Source: Felis catus
Taxonomy: Eukaryota
Assembly (NCBI RefSeq): GCF_018350175.1
Contig: NC_058368.1
Coordinates: forward strand, 9,052,001 to 9,116,000
Direction of reading: 5' to 3'
DNA: 64,000 nucleotides
A program made the position numbers and the translations under genes. Below, in pieces: positions 24,356 through 33,987 of this stretch (its first letter is position 1; each line of letters opens with the position of its first letter). The notes beneath the pieces are model-generated. The model saw only the letters and a list, made by a program, of their open reading frames with translations, made no database searches and was not told the DNA's origin.

Positions 24356-24789
24356 AGAATATGGAAAATGGGAAACCCATTTTGAAGTCAATCCCCAAGA
24401 GTTGGTTTCCTAGAATGCTGCATGGGTACCATTTGAAGGCAATTTGGCCCAAAAGGCATTCATATTCTCGGAGGTGGAGTTCGGCTATATTTACAGGGGA
24501 TCATAATGCAAGACAGCTCCCAAGCTACCTCAGAGATACATCAGGACACTTGTGGAAACCCAAGGGGAACAATATGAATTCTCTCCTGCCAAGCTTTTTT
24601 TGAACACAGAACTCCCTTCATCGGTCTGACCCTCCCAACAGTGGGCTCACAGAAACACTAGAGGGCAGCCTGTTGACCACACACAGCTCTTAGGGCCTTT
24701 TTGGAAGATGTTGATGGGAGAGAGTTAGTCCTCTCCACAACCTTCCTAACCAGGTTGTAATTAAAAGAAGTCTCAAATCAAATTCTGTC

Positions 24790-25021
24790 ACATTCATTTA
24801 AGGAAACAAACAAACAAACACTTATTAATAAGAAAGCACAAAACAGGTGAACAGAAGGGAAGGGAAAGAAAATATAAAAACCGAGAGGCGACAAACTGTA
24901 AGAGACTCTGAATCCAGAGAACAAACTGAGGGTTGCTGGAGGGGTGTTCAGTGGGGGGTGGGCTAAATGGATGATGGGAATTAAGGAAGGCACTTGTTGG
25001 GATGAGCACTGGGTGTTGTAT
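24790..25021 (+). mobile_element. Carnivore L1 3' UTR fragment, left part (provirus target)
   Basis: GAGAACAAACTGAGGGTTGCTGGAGGG...GATGAGCACTGGGTGTTGTAT is typical L1_Carn/L1_Fc 3' end sequence and continues after the provirus. Confidence 0.75.
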
Positions 25022-25571
25022 TGTTAGGAGCCAAGCTCCTAGGCCCTATGGAATGAGAGTTGGCGCAAAGAACCACTCGGCACTCCGATTTCGGCAGAGA
25101 GTCTTTACTGGTGCACCAGGGCTCCCCAGTGTTAGAAAGCGGGAGAGCCCCGATATACGGGGTTACAGGTCTTTTATACCATTTTGAGTTACATTTGCAT
25201 ACAGGCTGGTGGTAGGCTCTCTGCTCGGTGGTGGTTAGGGTTGGGGGTAATTTCGTCCTGGGAAAGCTTGGGAAATGGAGTTTCTCTCGGCAGATGCAAC
25301 TTGGAGCCCGGGTGCGAAGCGGCAGGGGACCTCCGGTTTGGGAGCGTAAGCAGGTTTACAGAAGCGAGATGAAAGCGGTCATCGTTATTTATGTGACAAC
25401 CTGTTCCTGTCTTGCGTAGGGAAAGGTGGGGGTACAGCTCTCCCAGGGTACGGATGTCTAACTGCAGATATCCTGTTTGTCAACTGGTGGAAGTGCAAGC
25501 CCTGCAAGTGAGGCGTTACGGAACTGAAGATAGGGTGGGGGTGTGTTATTAAGCTAAGCAGGGGTCTTTCA
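25022..25571 (-). repeat. 3' LTR (550 bp)
   Basis: Copy of 33337-33886 with no mismatch found by eye, immediately preceded (minus strand) by the polypurine tract. Confidence 0.97.
25104..25109 (-). terminator. Variant poly(A) signal AGTAAA in R of the 3' LTR
   Basis: AGTAAA about 65 nt downstream of the TATA box. No AATAAA is seen in R/U5. Confidence 0.65.
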
Positions 25572-25588
25572 TTCCCCCATTTTCTTTT
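25572..25588 (-). other. Polypurine tract
   Basis: Minus strand AAAAGAAAATGGGGGAA directly abutting the TG of the 3' LTR. Confidence 0.9.
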
Positions 25589-25606
25589 GGCGTCGAATGA
25601 AACCTT

Positions 25607-26707
25607 TCATTCGATTGTATCTGGCCTTTCTGCGTCAAATTGTCTTAGTTGGTGGTACTGTTGAGTTAGGACCAAGGCCTGGATGACAGAGAGTCTTTCT
25701 CTTATGAATTGTACCAAGCGGTTGAGGATGCAAGGTCCGAACATCAGTATTAATAGTAGGAGTATTAAAGGGCCCATGAGGGAGGAGACTAGAGTGGTAA
25801 ACCAGGGGGATTTGTTATACCACCCCTCAAACCAGCCTTGCTGAGATTCGAACAGCTTTTGTCTTTGTTTGAGTCTCTCCCTCAGCTTGGCCATGCTGTC
25901 TCTCACTATTCCTGTGTGATCAGCATAGAAGCAGCACTCTTCTTTGAGGGCAGCACATAACCCGCCTTCTTGTACGAACAACAGGTCAAGTCCCCTCCGA
26001 TTTTGTAAAACCACTTCTGAGAGGGAGGTTAGGGATCTTTCTAGTGCCGAGATGGATTCTTCTAGTGCCTGTATGTCAGAATGCATAGCGATTTGTAACT
26101 GCTTGAACTGATTAGTTTCTATGAGAGCTGCGGTGCCTGTCCCTATGCCAGCTGCTAAACTTCCCATAGTTAATCCCCCTAGGAGCAGTGCTACGGTGAG
26201 GGAAACTGGTTCTCTCCGGAATCTGCCGCCGGGTTCGTAGTGGCCATAAATATATTCTGAGTCATGGTAGAAGATTTTTGGCCAAAGTTCAATTAGGATG
26301 CAATAGTCGGCAGTATTATTGAGTACCTGGAGCGAGATGCATGGCGTGAGTCCGGTGTTACAGACCCAGTACGTTCCGTTGGGAGCGGTCAAATAATAGG
26401 GACCCTGCCCGACAGATGGTATGGTCTGACTACAGAGATTCTGGTGTGAGGGTGGAATTTTCCCAATACATAGGCCATGACCGGTGACTTCAGTTAAAGT
26501 GAGGCCATGTCGAGGTGTAGTGCTACATCTCAGTGGGGCATTCGTATGGTTAGTAAAGTTCCCAATTATAGCAACTCCCTGATAGTAAGGGGGTTTAGCC
26601 GTTAGGCAGAGCCAACAGTCCTGAGTTTGATTTGGGGCCGTAAGGTTGAGAGTTAAGTATACCCCTTGTACAAGGTTTAGGAGCCTATCTCCTGTGCCCG
26701 GTCGAGA
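25607..26707 (-). pseudogene. env: Env C-terminal part (SU C-domain + TM), open but out of frame with the N-terminus
   Basis: Manual translation gives a continuous stop-free frame: [17 protein letters not shown], furin site RFRR/EPV, fusion peptide, [22 protein letters not shown]6CC, TM helix and YHQL tail. The ORF-track TTG start at 26392 is internal. Confidence 0.9.
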
Positions 26708-27596
26708 GGGGGGGGGTCGGGTATCCTAGACTGGGGCTTAGAGTGGAATTAACAGGGTTAATTCCCGGTGTCTGAGTTGGGGCCCTTGGTGGCTGGACTG
26801 GGATGGCTAGCTGGACCGGAGCTTTTTGATCGGCCAATACTAGGTTGGGACCTACGGTTTGGGTGATTGTATCTATTTTTAATTTGATTTTTAGAACAAT
26901 CCCCCTATCTTTTCCCGGTAGGTACCATCGGAGTCCCCATGTATAGCCCGTCTGCCATCCGAGAGCCCGTTTTCCTGAATCTGTAAAGGTAATCTTAAGA
27001 GGTAGAGACAGGGGACTTATCCAATGATGATACCCTTCTGTGCCCTTTTTATAGTAGCAAGTGTGTCCATCGGGGTCAGGTTTGGTGTAACCTCTTGTAA
27101 TGGTGATTAAGTCCCAGGAAGAGGTAGGTTGCCAGTAGGCATCGCCAGTAGTTTCGCAGCCCCATGCCGAGCAGAAATATTCTTCATATCCCCCACATCG
27201 GTGGGCAGTGGCCCTATCCCTATTGTCTCGAGGACAGACATAGAACTCTGCCTGGGCTAATCTACATCTGGCAGTGGGACTACTGCATCCATGGGCAGTC
27301 ATCTGCTGGATTCTTTCCCCCATGTAGGACTGCAGGTTCTTGGGGCTTCTAGCTGGGATATCCCAAGTGTCTAATCCAGCTGCCAGCTGGCAAAAATCAG
27401 GGGTAAGTGGGGGCCACCAAGTATTAAGCGCATGGTTACCTTGGACCTCCCAGACAACTTCCCCGCTCTGGGAGTAGATTTGCCAAGTCAAGGTATAAAC
27501 CTGATGTGGGTTCCCCTCTTTGACAATTTTAGCTCCAATTCCCGCCCCCAAGCTTGTGAGGACCCACAGAAAGACCATTCCCGCTGGGGGTTTCAT
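26685..27596 (-). CDS. env: Env N-terminal ORF, 303 aa: signal peptide + receptor-binding domain + proline-rich region, ended by a frameshift
   Basis: Hydrophobic signal, PHQ motif, Cys-rich variable regions, WGCETTG, GPN-starting proline-rich region, then 7 out-of-frame residues (LSTGHRR) and TAG. Confidence 0.9.
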
Positions 27597-27630
27597 TTTG
27601 GGTTTGTGCAGGGACAGGGTGGATTAACAG

Positions 27631-30600
27631 TCAGACACGGGAGAGTCTTATCTTAAGAGGGTTCTCCGAACGGTGGAGCTTCCAGGTTTTGGGAGCTTTC
27701 GGTCCAGGGGTTCTTGGGGCTGCCTTGGCGTGTGATGCGTGAATCCAGGCGGCGATCCCGTCAACCTTTATGGCGGTGGGCGTGGTCAGCAGGACGATGT
27801 AAGGTCCCTTCCAACGAGGCTCCAATCCTTGAGAGCGGTGCCGCCGGACGTACACGGAGTCTCCTACCTGAAATGGGTGGCTAGTTTGTGGATGTCCTGG
27901 CCGGTACAGTTCGGCCAGGGGTGTCCAGATTTGGGCCTGCACCGCTTGCAGCCCTTTTAGTCGGGCTTGTAAATCAGTCTTAGGATCGGAGGGGGAGAAG
28001 GAATTGAGCAAGGTTGACAAAGGGGGGGGTCCCCCATAAAGGATTTCATACGGGGTGAGCCCGAAACGGTTGGGCGTATTTCTGGCTCTTAACAAAGCCA
28101 GAGATAGGAGGCGTCTCCAATCTTTTAAGCCAGTCTCTAAGGTCAATTTAGTAAGGGTCTCTTTTATTGTTCTATTCATTCTTTCTACCTGTCCTGAGCT
28201 CTGGGGCCTATATGCACAGTGTAATTTCCAATTAATCCCCAGTGTCCTGGCGAGCCCCTGACTTACCTGGGAAACGAAGGCCGGCCCGTTATCTGACCCG
28301 ATTACCTTGGGAAGTCCAAATCTGGGGAAGATTTCTTCTAAAATCTTCTTGGCTACCACGTGTGCCGTTTCTTGTCGGGTGGGGTAGGCTTCTACCCATC
28401 CTGAAAAGGTGTCTACAAACACTAATAGGTACTTATACCCCGCATGGTGAGGCTTTACTTCAGTAAAGTCTATTTCCCAATAGACTCCTGGGCGGTTACC
28501 ACGAGTCCGTTTTCCTTCCGGCACTCGGGTAGCCCCAGCGTTTACCTGTTGACAGACCTTACAGGCGGAGGTTACCTGTTCTATGAGGGTGCCTGCCTTA
28601 GGGATTAAGAAGTCAGTTTTTTTAATCAGTAACTTCAGCTTCTGATTACTTAAATGTGTCCAGGCGTGCATTTGTTGGATCATTGCCAGGGCTTCCTTTC
28701 GGGGAAGGACTATCTTTCCTTCTTTTTCCCAGTCTTTAGTGTCCTGATTCAGTATAGCCCCTATGGCCTTTGCCTCTTCCTGGTCTTCTGGGGTGTAAGC
28801 ATATTTGTTGGTCGTAAGATTGGTTTCTTCAAGTTTTGTGGTCAAAGTCAACGTTTCTGCCACAGCGACTTGCCTGGCTACTTGGTCTGCCTGTCTATTT
28901 CCTGTTGCAATTGGGTCTTGTCCTTTCTGATGCCCGGGGCAATGAATTATGGCTACTTTTCGGGGAAGAAAAAGGGCCTTTAATAATGCAATGATTTCAG
29001 CTTTGTTTTTAATTTCTTTTCCTTCTGAGGTTAGTAGGCCCCTTCTTTCATAAATACTCCCATGTGTATGAGCCGTTGCAAAGGCATATCGGCTATCTGT
29101 GTATATGTTAGCCTTTTTCCCTTCGGATAGTTCTAGGGCCTTGGTGAGCGCTATCAGCTCGGCCTTTTGTGCAGACGTGCCAGGAGGTAGTGATTGTGCC
29201 CATATGATGTGGTGGCCATCTACTACCGCCGCTCCCGCCCTCCGGGTACCTGAGTCGATGTAACTGCTCCCGTCCGTATACCAAGAGTGATCCGCATCTG
29301 GGAGCTCTTGATCTTTAAGGTCTTCCCGTGTCCCATGGGTCTCAGCCAGTACTTGCCGGCAATCGTGTGCGCTCTGTTGGTCTTCCGGTGCCGGTAGCAA
29401 CGTGGCAGGGTTCAAGGTAACCGGAGGTCCAAATTGGACGCGGTCTGTGTCCAGTAGGAGGGCCTGGTAGTGGGTTAGGCGTGCGTTGGTTATCCATCGG
29501 TCCGGTGGCTGCCGCACTATGGCCTCTAAAGCATGCGGGGTGATAACAGTTAGTGGCTGTCCAAGGGTTAATTTGGCAGAGTCCTTGACCAGCATAGCAG
29601 TGGCTGCCATGATACGAAGACATGGGGGCCACCCCGCTGCCACAGGGTCCAACTTTTTGGACAGGTATGCTACTGGCCTCTTCCAGGGCCCTAATTTTTG
29701 GGTTAGAACTCCTTTGGCAATTCCTTGTTTCTCGTCTATGAAAAGGGTAAAGGGCTTGGAGGTGTCTGGCAACCCGAGAGCCGGGGCGGAGAGGAGGGCC
29801 TCTTTTAGGGCCTCAAAGGCTGACTGATGTTTTTCCTGCCAGGTGAAGGGTGCACTCTCTTTCGTGAGGGCATAGAGGGGGGCGGCTAGCTCAGCGAACC
29901 CAGGTATCCATAAGCGACAGAACCCAGCAGTTCCCAGGAATTCACGTACCTCTCTGGGGTTCTGGGGCGGCGGAATGCGAGCCACAGTTTCTATTCGCCC
30001 AGGGGTGAGCCATCTTTTCCCCTCACTCAGTATGTACCCCAGGTAGGTTACCTTGGTTTGGCAAATCTGGGCCTTCTTGGCAGATGCCCGGTATCCTTTT
30101 TCTCCTAATTCCCGGAGCAGATGTCTGGTACCTAGTATGCAGGCTTCTTTTGTGGGGGCGGCCAGAAGAAGGTCATCCACATATTGGAGTAGAGTTACTT
30201 CTGGATGTTGAGTCCGGAAGTCAGTTAGGTCCCTGTGAAGAGCCTCATCAAAGAGAGTGGGGGAGTTTTTGAACCCTTGGGGTAAGCAGGTCCAGGTTAA
30301 TTGGCCTGAAATTCCTCTTTCAGGGTCCCTCCATTCAAAAGCAAACAGTTCCTGGCTCTGGGGGGCCAAGGGTAAGCAAAAGAACGCATCTTTTAGGTCC
30401 AGTACTGTGTACCAGGTGTGGTCTGGGCTCAGGGTGCTGAGCAAGTTATAGGGATTGGGGACCGTAGGGTGGATATCCATAGTCCTTTTGTTGACTTCTC
30501 TTAAGTCTTGGACGGGCCTGTAGTCCCGGGTGCCAGGTTTTTTTACTGGTAAAAGAGGGGTATTCCAAGGTGAGCGGCAAGGTCGCAGGACCCCAAGCTC

Positions 30601-31200
30601 TAGAAATCTAGTAATGTGTGGCTGAATGCCCATATGAGCCTCCTTGCTCATGGGATACTGCCTGATAGACACAGGCATTGCCGTGGGCTTTAGGTCAATT
30701 ATGATTGGGACTTGGCATTTGGCTCGACCGAGCCCTCCCGTTTCTGCCCAGGCTTGGGGAAAGTCCTGCAGCCAGGCTTCGAGGAGGTTAGTGGTGACCG
30801 AGGTTTCAAAAAGTCTGTGTTCGTCTTGTAAGGACACAGTTAAGACTTGGATAGGCTGGCCATCCCGGTTTAGCACTTGGGCCCCCGTTTCGGAGAAGTG
30901 TATCTGGGCTCCAAGCTTGGTTAGGAGGTCTCGTCCCAGAAGGGGGTACGGGCATTCGGGTACCACCAGAAAGGAGTGTGTCACCGTCCCTTGCCCTAAG
31001 TCAACCGTGCGGCGGTTAGTCCATTTGTGAATTTTTCTTCCTGTCGCTCCTTGGACCCAGGAGGTACGCGAGGACAGAGGCCCATTTGCCTTGGTTAAGA
31101 CCGAGTGTTGAGCTCCCGTGTCCACCAGGAAGGTGGTGGGATGCCCCCCTACAGATAGGGTTAGCCGGGGCTCGGGGGGGGCTCCGGAGCCCTGACATCC
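27631..31200 (-). CDS. pol: Pro-Pol (PR-RT-RNase H-IN), 1189 aa after the gag stop, expressed as Gag-Pol by UAG read-through, open
   Basis: Same frame as gag. Protease LVDTGA, RT LPQG and YVDD, RNase H D-E-D-D (YTDGS, ELIAL, YTDSR, NRQAD), integrase HHCC, D,D(35)E (IDF, SDNG, VERM) and GPY module. Confidence 0.96.
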
Positions 31201-31203
31201 CTA
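31143..31203 (-). promoter_or_regulatory. Gag-Pol stop-codon read-through signal (pseudoknot)
   Basis: TAG + 8-nt spacer GGATGTCA, stem 1 GGGCTC/GAGCCC, stem 2 GCCCCCC/GGGGGGC. Same layout as the MLV read-through pseudoknot. Confidence 0.85.
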
Positions 31204-32877
31204 TTCGCTCTCTTCGCCTAAGGCGAGCACAGAGGCAGGTTTCTTTGAGTTCCCGGGGCGCTTAGGGCAGTCTTTGATCCAGTGCCCGCGTTCTTTGCAA
31301 TAGGCGCACTGGTCTTTTCCTACTTTGGGCCGCCTCTTCGTTTCCCCTGACTTTCCTGTTCCGTTTTCTGTCACTACAGCTGCCAGGATTTTGGTTAAAT
31401 GTTTATCTCTCTTTCGATCTCTTCGTTCCTCCCGTGCTTCCTGCTCTTTTGCTAGCCTAGCCTCCTTTTCCTCTGGGGTCTCCCTTTTGTTATATACCTT
31501 TTCTGCCTCCCTAACTAGTTCCTGCAACCCATAGGTTTGAATCCCATCTAGCCGTTGGAGCTTTCCTTTTATATCAGACGCTGCCTGATCTATGAATGAC
31601 ATGGCCACGGTAGCCTTATGTTCTGGAGCCTCGGGGTTAAATGGAGTATACATCCGAAACCCCTCTAGAAGCCGTTCCATAAAGGCTGCGGGGCTCTCCT
31701 CTTTTCCTTGGATTATGGTCCTTACCTTGGCCAAATTGGTGGGCCGTTTCCCTGCCCCCTTGAGACCCGCCAACAGAGCCTGGCGATAGATTCGGAGACT
31801 CTCCCTACCTGGAGCCGTTTCATAGTCCCAGTCCGGGCGGGTGAGGGGAAACCCTTCATCTATTTCATTGGGAAGCTGAGTTGGAAGACCTCCAGGCCCC
31901 GGCACATTTTTCCGGGCCTCCAGGAGAACTCGTTGCCTTTCCTCGGTAGTCAAAAGGACCTGTAAGAGCTGCTGGCAGTCGTCCCAGGTAGGCTGGTGTG
32001 TGAGGAGGATAGACTCTATTAGTGAGGTTAGGGCCTGGGGTTCTTGGGAAAAGGAAGGGTTATGAGTTTTCCAATTATAGAGATCGGATGCAGAAAATGG
32101 CCAATATTGGACAGTCCGGTTGACTGTCCGGAGAGGAAACAGGGAAGATTGCCAAGTGGGAGGGCCGTTCGGGTCGTCCGATCGCCGGAGACGGAGGCGG
32201 GGGGTCTGAGGTGGGGTCTGGGGAGTTAGATCGGGTGGGGCTGGAGTAGAGGATGGGGCTGACGTACAGGCGGGGGAAGAAGTTGGGGAGGGGGAGGAGG
32301 AACTGGAGGCAGGAGGGGAAGTAGGGGGCACCGGGGACAGGACGGAGACGGGGGCCAGGGGTGAATTATAGGGTGGAGGTAGTAAGAGGGGGTTGTGGGG
32401 CGGTGAAGTCTCTTCGGGGGCGTGGGGCGGCGAAGACAAAGCGTCTAGGAGGAGGGGGTCCCTTTGGGACTCATCGGGAAGAACCGGTTTGGGCGGATCT
32501 GGAGTTTGGGTTGAGGCTCGGTTTTTGGAGGTTTTCAGGGGAAGGAGGGTAGACTGAGAAGTGGGGCAGGAAGGAAGGAAGGGTTTCACCCATGCCGGAG
32601 GATTCCGGATGAGATCCTCCCAGGTGAGGATATAGGCCACTTGATCTGGATGACCTTGTGGTCCAGGATCCATTACCTTCGTCTTAACCTGTAATATAAC
32701 AAAGAGGTCAAAAGTCCCGTCCCGGGGCCACCCTACAGATAGGGTGGGCCACTCCGATGAACAAAAAGTTCGCCATCGACCTTTTCGAACCTCAACGGAT
32801 AGATTGCGAGCTCTTGCCTGGACGTCCGAGAAATGAGTCAGAGTCAAAGATAGAGGAGTAGTCAGTGTCTGTCCCAT
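31201..32877 (-). CDS. gag: Gag polyprotein, 558 aa (MA-p12-CA-NC), open
   Basis: GCCATGG start with myristoylation motif [17 protein letters not shown] late domain, major homology region [16 protein letters not shown], single CCHC knuckle [14 protein letters not shown] and TAG stop. Confidence 0.96.
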
Positions 32878-33084
32878 GGCTGTGTCGTCCTGTCCACGCG
32901 TCCACACACGCACACTTACACACACACACACGAATATGACTACAATGTCGATACAGACCAGACAACACAGACTAGACAACAACCAAGGAGCCGCGGCCAG
33001 GTATTCAGATTCAGATGGCAGGGGAGGCCTGCCTTCGGATTTGGGGAGTCTGACGAACTTGTCAGTTCTCCTCTACAAGCACCA

Positions 33085-33173
33085 CCGAGGCGTCCCTCGG
33101 GGCCGGGGTGTGAAGGTTCAGGACACGTCTGTCCTCCTTCAACACTCCTACTGAGGTGGCCGGCCGGCCTCAG
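33085..33173 (-). other. Psi packaging/dimerisation region
   Basis: Two GACG-tetraloop hairpins (CCGAGG-GACG-CCTCGG at 33085-33100 and GGACA-GACG-TGTCC at 33121-33134), preceded by a CTGAGG/CCTCAG stem with a self-complementary GGCCGGCCGGCC (33158-33169). This is the MLV-like DIS/SL-C/SL-D arrangement. Confidence 0.8.
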
Positions 33174-33204
33174 AATTCACAGTTCAGAGACAAAACATAG
33201 AACA

Positions 33205-33213
33205 CAATACCTG
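33205..33213 (-). other. Candidate major splice donor for env mRNA
   Basis: CAG|GTATTG in the leader between PBS and Psi, the expected position. Matched by motif only. Confidence 0.45.
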
Positions 33214-33316
33214 TGTGCAGACAAAGGCACAGAAGTCTGTCTTCAGTCAGTCCGTCAGTGGCCCGGGCCGGAGAGTCATCTACCGACGGGGCCGGGGTTC
33301 TCCTGCCTTCCCTCGC

Positions 33317-33334
33317 TTCCCGGCCAACGCACCA
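33317..33334 (-). other. Primer binding site, tRNA-Gly
   Basis: Minus strand TGGTGCGTTGGCCGGGAA, 2 nt after the 5' LTR. It is complementary to TTCCCGGCCAACGCACCA, the 3' 18 nt of mammalian tRNA-Gly(TCC). Confidence 0.9.
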
Positions 33335-33336
33335 AA

Positions 33337-33886
33337 TGTTAGGAGCCAAGCTCCTAGGCCCTATGGAATGAGAGTTGGCGCAAAGAACCACTCGGCACTC
33401 CGATTTCGGCAGAGAGTCTTTACTGGTGCACCAGGGCTCCCCAGTGTTAGAAAGCGGGAGAGCCCCGATATACGGGGTTACAGGTCTTTTATACCATTTT
33501 GAGTTACATTTGCATACAGGCTGGTGGTAGGCTCTCTGCTCGGTGGTGGTTAGGGTTGGGGGTAATTTCGTCCTGGGAAAGCTTGGGAAATGGAGTTTCT
33601 CTCGGCAGATGCAACTTGGAGCCCGGGTGCGAAGCGGCAGGGGACCTCCGGTTTGGGAGCGTAAGCAGGTTTACAGAAGCGAGATGAAAGCGGTCATCGT
33701 TATTTATGTGACAACCTGTTCCTGTCTTGCGTAGGGAAAGGTGGGGGTACAGCTCTCCCAGGGTACGGATGTCTAACTGCAGATATCCTGTTTGTCAACT
33801 GGTGGAAGTGCAAGCCCTGCAAGTGAGGCGTTACGGAACTGAAGATAGGGTGGGGGTGTGTTATTAAGCTAAGCAGGGGTCTTTCA
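33337..33886 (-). repeat. 5' LTR (550 bp)
   Basis: Minus strand starts TGAAAGACCCC and ends GGCTCCTAACA, followed by TT and the PBS. Repeated at offset 8315. Confidence 0.97.
33487..33493 (-). promoter_or_regulatory. LTR TATA box (5' LTR U3)
   Basis: Minus strand TATAAAA about 150 nt before the LTR 3' end. Copy at 25172-25178. Confidence 0.8.
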
Positions 33887-33987
33887 GTATATAAGTGATG
33901 AGTCACTAAATTCTGCCCCCGAAATCATTATTACACTATATGTTAACTAAATTTGCTTTAAATAAAGTTTAAAACTTTTTTTAAAAA
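33887..33987 (+). mobile_element. Carnivore L1 3' UTR fragment, right part with poly(A) signal
   Basis: GTATATAAGTGATGAGTCACTAAATTCT...TATATGTTAACTAA...AATAAA resumes the L1 end exactly at the TSD. Confidence 0.75.

Follow-up and report, generated by a model that had tools for sequence, protein, structure and literature searches.

Refrex-1, the closest described relative of the locus reported here, is a truncated retroviral envelope protein (Env) of the domestic cat that is encoded by two genotype II proviruses, ERV-DC7 and ERV-DC16. As set out in the available text of a review (PMC5923473), the env genes of these proviruses stop within the proline-rich region, at amino acids (aa) 252 and 298; their products are secreted proteins that block both subgroup D feline leukemia virus (FeLV-D) and ERV-DC of genotype I, and the two loci are fixed in cats and highly expressed. 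The accessible portions of a second paper (PMC9245640) name CTR1 as the receptor for genotype I ERV-DC and FeLV-D, for which Refrex-1 competes, and describe truncated Envs of 230-439 aa as secreted and antiviral. We analyzed a 64,000-nucleotide stretch of the Felis catus genome (assembly GCF_018350175.1, contig NC_058368.1, positions 9,052,001 to 9,116,000 of the forward strand; hereafter the window) and found on its minus strand a full-length provirus, assigned here to ERV-DC genotype I, whose env gene is divided at a run of nine C, leaving a first frame that would encode a 303-aa Env fragment resembling Refrex-1.

A further truncated Env of the cat, FeLIX, is a cofactor for the entry of FeLV-T. 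Like the fragment predicted in the window, FeLIX is a soluble Env limited to the receptor-binding domain (RBD) and derived from an endogenous provirus (10.1101/2021.12.09.471612; PMC11019853, as far as their available text goes), and it differs in its virus, endogenous FeLV (enFeLV), and in its receptor, PiT1 (10.1101/2021.12.09.471612). Truncated primate Envs of the CTR1 interference group, namely CmRV-trunc1, RmRV-trunc1, and PNRC2-ChRV as well as BoRV-7, likewise consist of the surface subunit (SU) only, are secreted, and block CTR1-dependent entry, with lengths of 230-439 aa (PMC9245640, in the portions seen); they come from other hosts and older insertions and were tested experimentally, whereas the window product is predicted from sequence. 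The reading of the locus that we prefer, and consider reasonably probable, is that of a very young genotype I provirus with long terminal repeats (LTRs) of the low-activity T type, in which env was split by a one-base difference in a slippage-prone C run, the truncation being an incidental early lesion.

The divided env gene and its predicted product

The provirus occupies positions 25022-33886 of the window (8865 bp). Its env gene starts at an ATG at position 27596, and the first frame (26685-27596, minus strand) encodes, in order, a hydrophobic N-terminus serving as the signal peptide, NPHQ at aa 29-32, the RBD at about aa 24-245, and a proline-rich region that extends to aa 296, which is the order that a first-pass annotation of the window had described. 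The last codons of the proline-rich region contain a run of nine C (26708-26716, minus strand; nine G on the plus strand), where the frame changes, and a stop is reached seven codons past the run. The 303-aa product, whose length and run had been read in the same way in the earlier annotation, thus comprises 296 native residues followed by seven out-of-frame residues. The second env frame (25607-26725, minus strand) holds the C-terminal part of SU and the transmembrane subunit (TM), with CWLC, an RFRR furin site, the fusion peptide, the immunosuppressive-domain region, CX6CC, and the membrane anchor; the absence of CWLC, furin site, and anchor from the truncated product, as the annotation had claimed, follows directly from this arrangement. 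Compared with the intact genotype I Env P0084, the second frame carries a single change, L541V, in 367 residues.

Both frames match the Pfam family TLV_coat (560 positions), the first piece covering profile positions 2-234 and the second 229-560. The two pieces are therefore parts of one gene that is split at one place. Read from stop to stop, the frames have 312 and 372 codons, and SU with CWLC, the furin site, and TM are never found together in one frame, as they would be in a functional gammaretroviral Env. The reading across the run was compared among 21 cluster proteins, 12 of which were intact genotype I or FeLV-D Envs. These 12 agreed with one another across the run (one having L for the first P), and since both window frames depart from that reading there, the frame change is placed inside the C run. 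An exact look-up of the 303-aa product, Gag, and the second env frame in the protein collection returned no identical entry.

Two deposited Envs also deviate at this site. The FeLV-D Env P0094 (659 aa) has an extra proline exactly at the run (..PTPPPSRPG..), and the length of the run therefore varies in frame in exogenous recombinants too. The Env of FcEV, Q9XSY3 (P0055, 1999), reads ..PTPPLDRAQGDRLL at residues 296-303, where the 12 genotype I and FeLV-D Envs agree on other letters; five of its residues appear as though out of frame from the same run onward, after which the frame is regained. This anomaly may reflect an old sequencing compression or a real double change.

The relatives of the window Env point to genotype I. 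Its first 296 aa were identical (296/296) to those of P0084 and also to those of I7HGJ6. Against the FcEV Env Q9XSY3, the N-terminus was identical at 297 of 298 positions, and this protein led the longer-protein search (28 matches) at 100% identity across 98% of the query. Second, at 83% identity, came a genotype III-type Env with an additional APAPGPRPPYPTS-type stretch; the proline-rich region of the window Env is short, having no such genotype III insert. The members of the Q9XSY3 cluster are cat 'envelope polyprotein' entries, FeLV Envs of the subgroup D type, and the 297-aa Refrex-1, and the top hit of the near-length protein search (53 matches) was 'Restriction factor for feline retrovirus X' of Felis catus (251 aa, 94% identical). 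The RBD chains 1aol, 1lcs, 9fqt, and 9uat from the PDB matched residues 24-245 over nearly their whole lengths, with E values from 1e-22 to 1e-40. On the basis of the Env identities and these structural matches, the provirus is, by sequence, an ERV-DC of genotype I. The assignment that the first-pass annotation had left to later work could be made this far: the genotype is I, and the locus is neither ERV-DC7 nor ERV-DC16, both of which lie elsewhere in the genome (copies L023 and L024).

When aligned with Refrex-1, the native part of the window product ends at residue 296, and ERV-DC16 Refrex-1 (P0086, 297 aa) ends at aligned residue 297. Both combine a signal peptide with the N-terminal RBD of SU and end in the proline-rich region, which is found in the two proteins alike, and neither includes the C-terminal SU domain or TM, which are likewise missing from ERV-DC7 Refrex-1 (251 aa). 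The window product is 90% identical to the former and 94% to the latter, and its 303 aa fall inside the 230-439 aa range reported for truncated Envs that are secreted. It is a close twin of ERV-DC16 Refrex-1 in architecture and end point, the end points differing by one residue, and the likeness proposed in the first-pass annotation was borne out to this extent. Its RBD, judged from these identities, is that of the very viruses that Refrex-1 blocks, and CTR1 is the receptor expected for Refrex-1 and window product alike.

The differences from Refrex-1 are equally clear. The window copy is of genotype I, whereas the Refrex-1 loci are of genotype II, and its env is broken by a frame change in the C run, whereas theirs is broken by a stop codon; the seven-residue foreign tail is absent from Refrex-1. 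The remainder of the window env is almost intact and the provirus is young, in contrast to the Refrex-1 loci, which are described as carrying further inactivating changes (PMC5923473) and as being about 2.8 million years (My) old and fixed (PMC5923473 and PMC9245640, in the text available from each). Exact matches to the deposited Refrex-1 proteins were found on other contigs, at L023 (251 aa) and L024 (297 aa), and they mark the host as a domestic cat. Refrex-1 is also marked by high expression from an active, little-methylated LTR, and by the sequence proxy for this property the window LTRs are T-type, unlike the A-type LTRs of the genotype II copies L022-L024. The window locus is thus not Refrex-1 as defined, having another genotype, another position, and a low-activity LTR.

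Among these genotype II copies, L022 (G000:C37:60233085-60236686) contains a third genotype II-like env; over the 3.5 kb that reach to the end of the 3' LTR, it matches the ERV-DC7 copy L023 at 98.5% identity. It has an A-type LTR, and a break of its env in the homologous C run leaves a 306-aa frame ending ..GYSTSPPLDRARETDS. The available text of the review lists ERV-DC7 and ERV-DC16 as the only genotype II loci (PMC5923473).

The promoter type was read from a single-nucleotide polymorphism (SNP) at LTR position 280, which has been described together with a surrounding primer (10.1101/2024.05.09.593269, in part). Within the available text of the review, T-type genotype I LTRs (ERV-DC1, 3, 4, 8, 14, and 17) are reported to have no basal promoter activity, and the expression of genotype I in organs to be extremely low (PMC5923473). 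Both window LTRs carry T at this position (window 25292 in the 3' LTR and 33607 in the 5' LTR), the low-activity type, and expression of the locus is probably low. T was present in all LTRs in which the motif was found in 19 of the 21 genotype I-like copies compared below, A being confined to copies L041 and L042.

The two LTRs of the window provirus (3' LTR, 25022-25571; 5' LTR, 33337-33886; both minus strand) are each 550 bp long and 100% identical, with GTAT at both outer edges. Substitution rates of 1.2e-8 and 2.2e-9 per site per year were used for dating. With 0 differences in the 550-bp pair, the 95% upper bound on the age is about 0.23 My at the faster rate or 1.2 My at the slower. Relative to its sister copies, the provirus has four private substitutions in 8865 bp, with private bases at window 25975 and 27733. 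Because the LTRs are identical, it is justified to call the provirus very young; the identical LTR pair and the open gag (558 aa) and pol (1189 codons), from which the earlier annotation had concluded the same, were all recovered. The identical LTRs also suggest that the insertion is probably polymorphic in cats.

Sister copies and the distribution of the run

We searched the genome (2.43 Gb in 71 contigs) with a 601-bp env probe and obtained 26 matching places. The window copy and 20 further genotype I-like proviruses taken in full made up the set of 21 copies that was compared; L025 was partial only. All of the fetched sister proviruses have two LTRs. Over about 8.86 kb, 11-24 substitutions separate them from the window copy, apart from two copies with 45-48. 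The LTR pairs were identical in 8 of the 21 copies. An env frame of 662 aa was present in 14 and shortened in the other 7 (303 aa in three, and 333, 247, 102, and 562 aa in one each), gag and pol were both open in 7 copies, and all three genes were open in 3. Since shortened env frames and identical LTRs are common among the sister copies, these features of the window provirus are ordinary for the ERV-DC genotype I family. The suggestion that the locus is an independent, nascent restriction factor therefore fared less well than the structural claims: its LTRs are T-type, a short env and identical LTRs recur in 7 and 8 of the 21 copies, respectively, and the same break is present at two other loci.

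In all, at least 22 genotype I-like env-bearing ERV-DC copies were observed, nearly all of full length and 0.1-0.3% from the window copy, with a star-like tree. The catalogue, as given in the available part of the review, comprises 13 ERV-DC loci, 8 of them genotype I (PMC5923473). These figures suggest a recent burst with many uncatalogued, probably polymorphic insertions.

The nine-base run was found at exactly three places in the genome: in the window, at 24.30 Mb of C39 (L001/L027), and at 133.96 Mb of C17 (L003/L028). The eight-base form occurs at 16 places, in three further genotype I-like copies the run is interrupted by a T, and four copies of genotype II/III type diverge further there. 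The 303-aa products of the three nine-run copies are identical except for E94K in L028. The 4-bp duplication differs among the three copies, and their flanks are unrelated; they are therefore three separate integrations, and a segmental duplication as their common source is ruled out by the same observations. The presence of the break in two other proviruses also means that the window locus is not unique.

The relationships among the copies do not follow the state of the run. The window copy is 18 substitutions from L028 and 20 from L027, but only 11-12 from several eight-run copies, and L027, L028, and L031 share two substitutions that are absent from the window copy. A maximum-likelihood tree, built without the columns of the run itself, was a star in which 1 of 18 inner branches was starred, and at least two changes of run state were needed on it. 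A single env-defective clade of the three nine-run copies was rejected by the approximately unbiased (AU) test (p 0.0029). From the AU test and the tree, the run state arose more than once, was moved by recombination, or is noise.

Env-defective endogenous retroviruses are known that multiply without an env of their own. The three separate integrations with a common env break and open gag-pol resemble them in this respect; here, there are three copies only and one clade is rejected, so that spread as a single lineage is not supported.

Explanations for the nine-base run

Under the reading of an incidental early lesion, slippage by one base in the run at the end of the proline-rich region would have split env, and the lesion would have arisen more than once or moved between genomes by recombination. 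Env-defective genomes with open gag-pol would then have reached at least three integration sites, presumably with Env from helper copies. If a spliced env mRNA is made, the product, having neither CWLC nor a TM partner nor an anchor, would be secreted; it would be expected to bind the copper transporter CTR1 and, in the manner of Refrex-1, to interfere with entry by genotype I ERV-DC and FeLV-D. The two fixed Refrex-1 loci would make such an effect redundant, and expression is probably low. The truncation would most likely be an incidental lesion of a decaying provirus and not a selected gene.

Several points weigh against this reading. Gag and pol were both open in all 3 nine-run copies, compared with 4 of the remaining 18 (one-sided Fisher test, 0.026, on a comparison chosen post hoc), and with gag-pol open in all nine-run copies the lesion could be something other than mere decay. 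The nine-base run could itself be a homopolymer miscall, since C8 runs are 1-2 bases longer in 13 of 63 instances, a pattern that long-read consensus error could give. All 6 words sampled from the 101 bases surrounding the run are present in 15 public runs (9 studies), and because one of these public runs is recorded as RNA, some transcription of a nine-run copy is possible. Finally, the argument for low expression takes one LTR base as a proxy and joins it to statements in a review that concern the genotype and not this locus.

The rival that survives best is the second of these, an assembly artefact in which the run was miscalled here, and perhaps at the two other loci too, so that env would be one continuous frame with no truncated product. 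Nearly all short indels among the 21 copies lie in homopolymers, and their frequency grows with run length: 6, 4, and 3 copies have a longer C8 run at provirus positions 2706, 5858, and 7171, respectively, which gives the 13 of 63 instances, while length changes affect 2 of 42 A7 instances and 3 of 63 C6 instances. The length patterns at the three C8 runs conflict with each other and with the tree, and both this conflict and the concentration of indels in homopolymers speak for an artefact, as does the fact that near-identical repeats are hard to polish. The pattern at the C8 runs would nevertheless fit reverse-transcriptase slippage and homopolymer miscalls alike. Against an artefact, 12 of the 15 public runs (7 studies) are not flagged as a possible source and hold all six words. 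Of the 71 words around the run, 23 contain the whole nine-base run, and the probability that all six sampled words miss the complete run is about 0.1; the nine-base form therefore probably exists in independent data, at any of the three loci and not specifically at the window locus. The two substitutions shared by L027 and L028, and also by L031, hint at inheritance; a deposited FeLV-D Env and an older genotype II-like copy also vary in run length at this place; and the window gag and pol (5.2 kb, with two C8 runs) are free of frame breaks. Five RNA runs with 4 of 6 sampled words were counted as no evidence and left unused, and four further runs had none of the words. A 46-base pattern with the nine-base run and a 45-base pattern with the eight-base run gave 0 exact matches in metagenome_contigs and viral_contigs, collections that seemingly hold no such cat DNA. 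Weighing these points, we think it quite likely that the nine-base run is real at the window locus, and an artefact correspondingly unlikely, if by no means negligible.

Other homopolymers in the copies behave similarly. Of the 21 copies, 6 and 4 have an extra base in the first and second C8 run of pol, respectively (window about 31173-31180 and 28021-28028; two extra bases in one copy). The first of these runs lies 20 nt past the gag TAG, and many of the frame breaks seen in the pol genes of sister copies are due to the two runs. In L027 (G000:C39:24300288-24310152), a C5 run at LTR position 139 is one base longer in both LTRs, L027 being the only such copy; because the same change is present in both LTRs, it was probably made before integration, which speaks for real variation in run length.

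A second rival concerns the identity of the locus, which could be one of the 13 catalogued ERV-DC proviruses, with ERV-DC4 the best fit. Within the available text of the review, ERV-DC4 is the only genotype I entry for which the intact frames are given as 'gag-pol' alone (PMC5923473, Table 1), and it is counted among the low-activity LTRs (PMC5923473, section 6); the window copy shows the same pattern. The window copy is the same virus as ERV-DC4 and the other genotype I ERV-DC (FcEV), and its open gag-pol and low-activity LTR are as listed for ERV-DC4. However, four copies in this genome fit the description of open gag-pol with a defective env, namely the three nine-run copies and L046, and the at least 22 genotype I-like env copies exceed the 8 catalogued genotype I loci, so that most copies are uncatalogued. 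We regard the identification with ERV-DC4 or another catalogued locus as doubtful. Deposited ERV-DC records are AB674439-AB674452 (PMC5923473, in the part available), AB807599, and AB807600. A full-text literature search, whose reach did not extend to the primary J Virol papers, returned no description of an env frame change in a genotype I ERV-DC copy.

The least probable rival, a functional soluble-Env restriction factor of new origin, expressed and secreted and starting to be favored by selection, has in its favor the architecture and end point of ERV-DC16 Refrex-1, an RBD identical to those of CTR1-using Envs, the occurrence of the lesion at three loci with gag-pol open in all, and the one RNA run holding all of the sampled words, but we consider it very unlikely in view of the T-type LTRs and the reported near-silence of genotype I, the identical LTRs, which leave almost no time for selection, and the full env frame kept by 14 of 21 sister copies together with the two fixed, well expressed Refrex-1 loci that already target the same receptor, which make any added benefit doubtful.

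Beyond the single locus, five truncations in this one genome cluster at the hinge that follows the RBD: the three genotype I copies (303 aa), L022 (306 aa), and ERV-DC16, whose stop lies two codons further on. We tentatively propose, as an idea with perhaps modest prospects, that the CCC-rich, proline-rich hinge is a built-in slippage hot spot at the RBD boundary from which the family keeps making Refrex-like decoys, and that env-frameshifted, gag-pol-open genotype I genomes are a young lineage spreading with helper Env and seeding decoy loci. Recurrent breaks at one C run would offer a mutational explanation for the repeated origin of soluble-Env factors, and three separate integrations with the same env break would bear on the spread of env-defective genomes. 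Both the recurrence of hinge breaks and the three env-broken integrations depend on read-level confirmation of the run. If the run length is real, the window would present the first step of Env co-option caught in progress, in a provirus that is essentially undecayed and whose sole notable lesion makes a soluble RBD, with the length of an established restriction factor, out of a fusogenic Env. Should the run be an assembly error, the lesson would be a practical one: in long-read assemblies, reading frames called in young proviruses that are nearly identical need checking against reads before they are interpreted biologically.

Other features of the provirus and its flanks

The remaining parts of the provirus conform to the simple gammaretroviral layout LTR-gag-pol-env-LTR of the roughly 9-kb class. 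The target-site duplication, GTAT on the plus strand, occupies 25018-25021 beside the 3' LTR and 33887-33890 beside the 5' LTR, with the flanks reading ..TTGTAT/LTR and LTR/GTATATAAG.. at the two ends. In the 5' LTR, TATAAA is found at LTR position 394 and AGTAAA at 463. An 18-nt primer-binding site, recognized by eye, lies two bases past the 5' LTR (33317-33334, minus strand), and a polypurine tract, read by eye on the reverse complement, lies directly upstream of the 3' LTR in the sense direction (25572-25588, minus strand).

The gag gene (31201-32877, minus strand) encodes 558 aa from its ATG and ends with TAG; pol follows in the same frame with 1189 open codons (27631-31200, minus strand), which is the usual gammaretroviral read-through arrangement. 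Pfam domains were detected for the matrix protein (MA), the p30 capsid protein (CA), and the zinc knuckle in Gag, and for protease, reverse transcriptase, RNase H, the integrase core, and the murine leukemia virus (MLV) integrase C-terminus in Pol. The gag frame is open for 65 codons 5' of the gag ATG (window 32878-33072, minus strand), so that it runs to 623 codons from stop to stop compared with 558 from the ATG. This upstream extension appears to resemble the glyco-Gag extension of other gammaretroviruses.

A host gene around the provirus was sought among 10 flanking open reading frames (151-228 codons), and none of them had a Pfam match. The 3' flank (window 24532-25021) was 78% identical over its first 121 bases to the flank of copy L031, and the provirus was therefore inserted in a dispersed host repeat.

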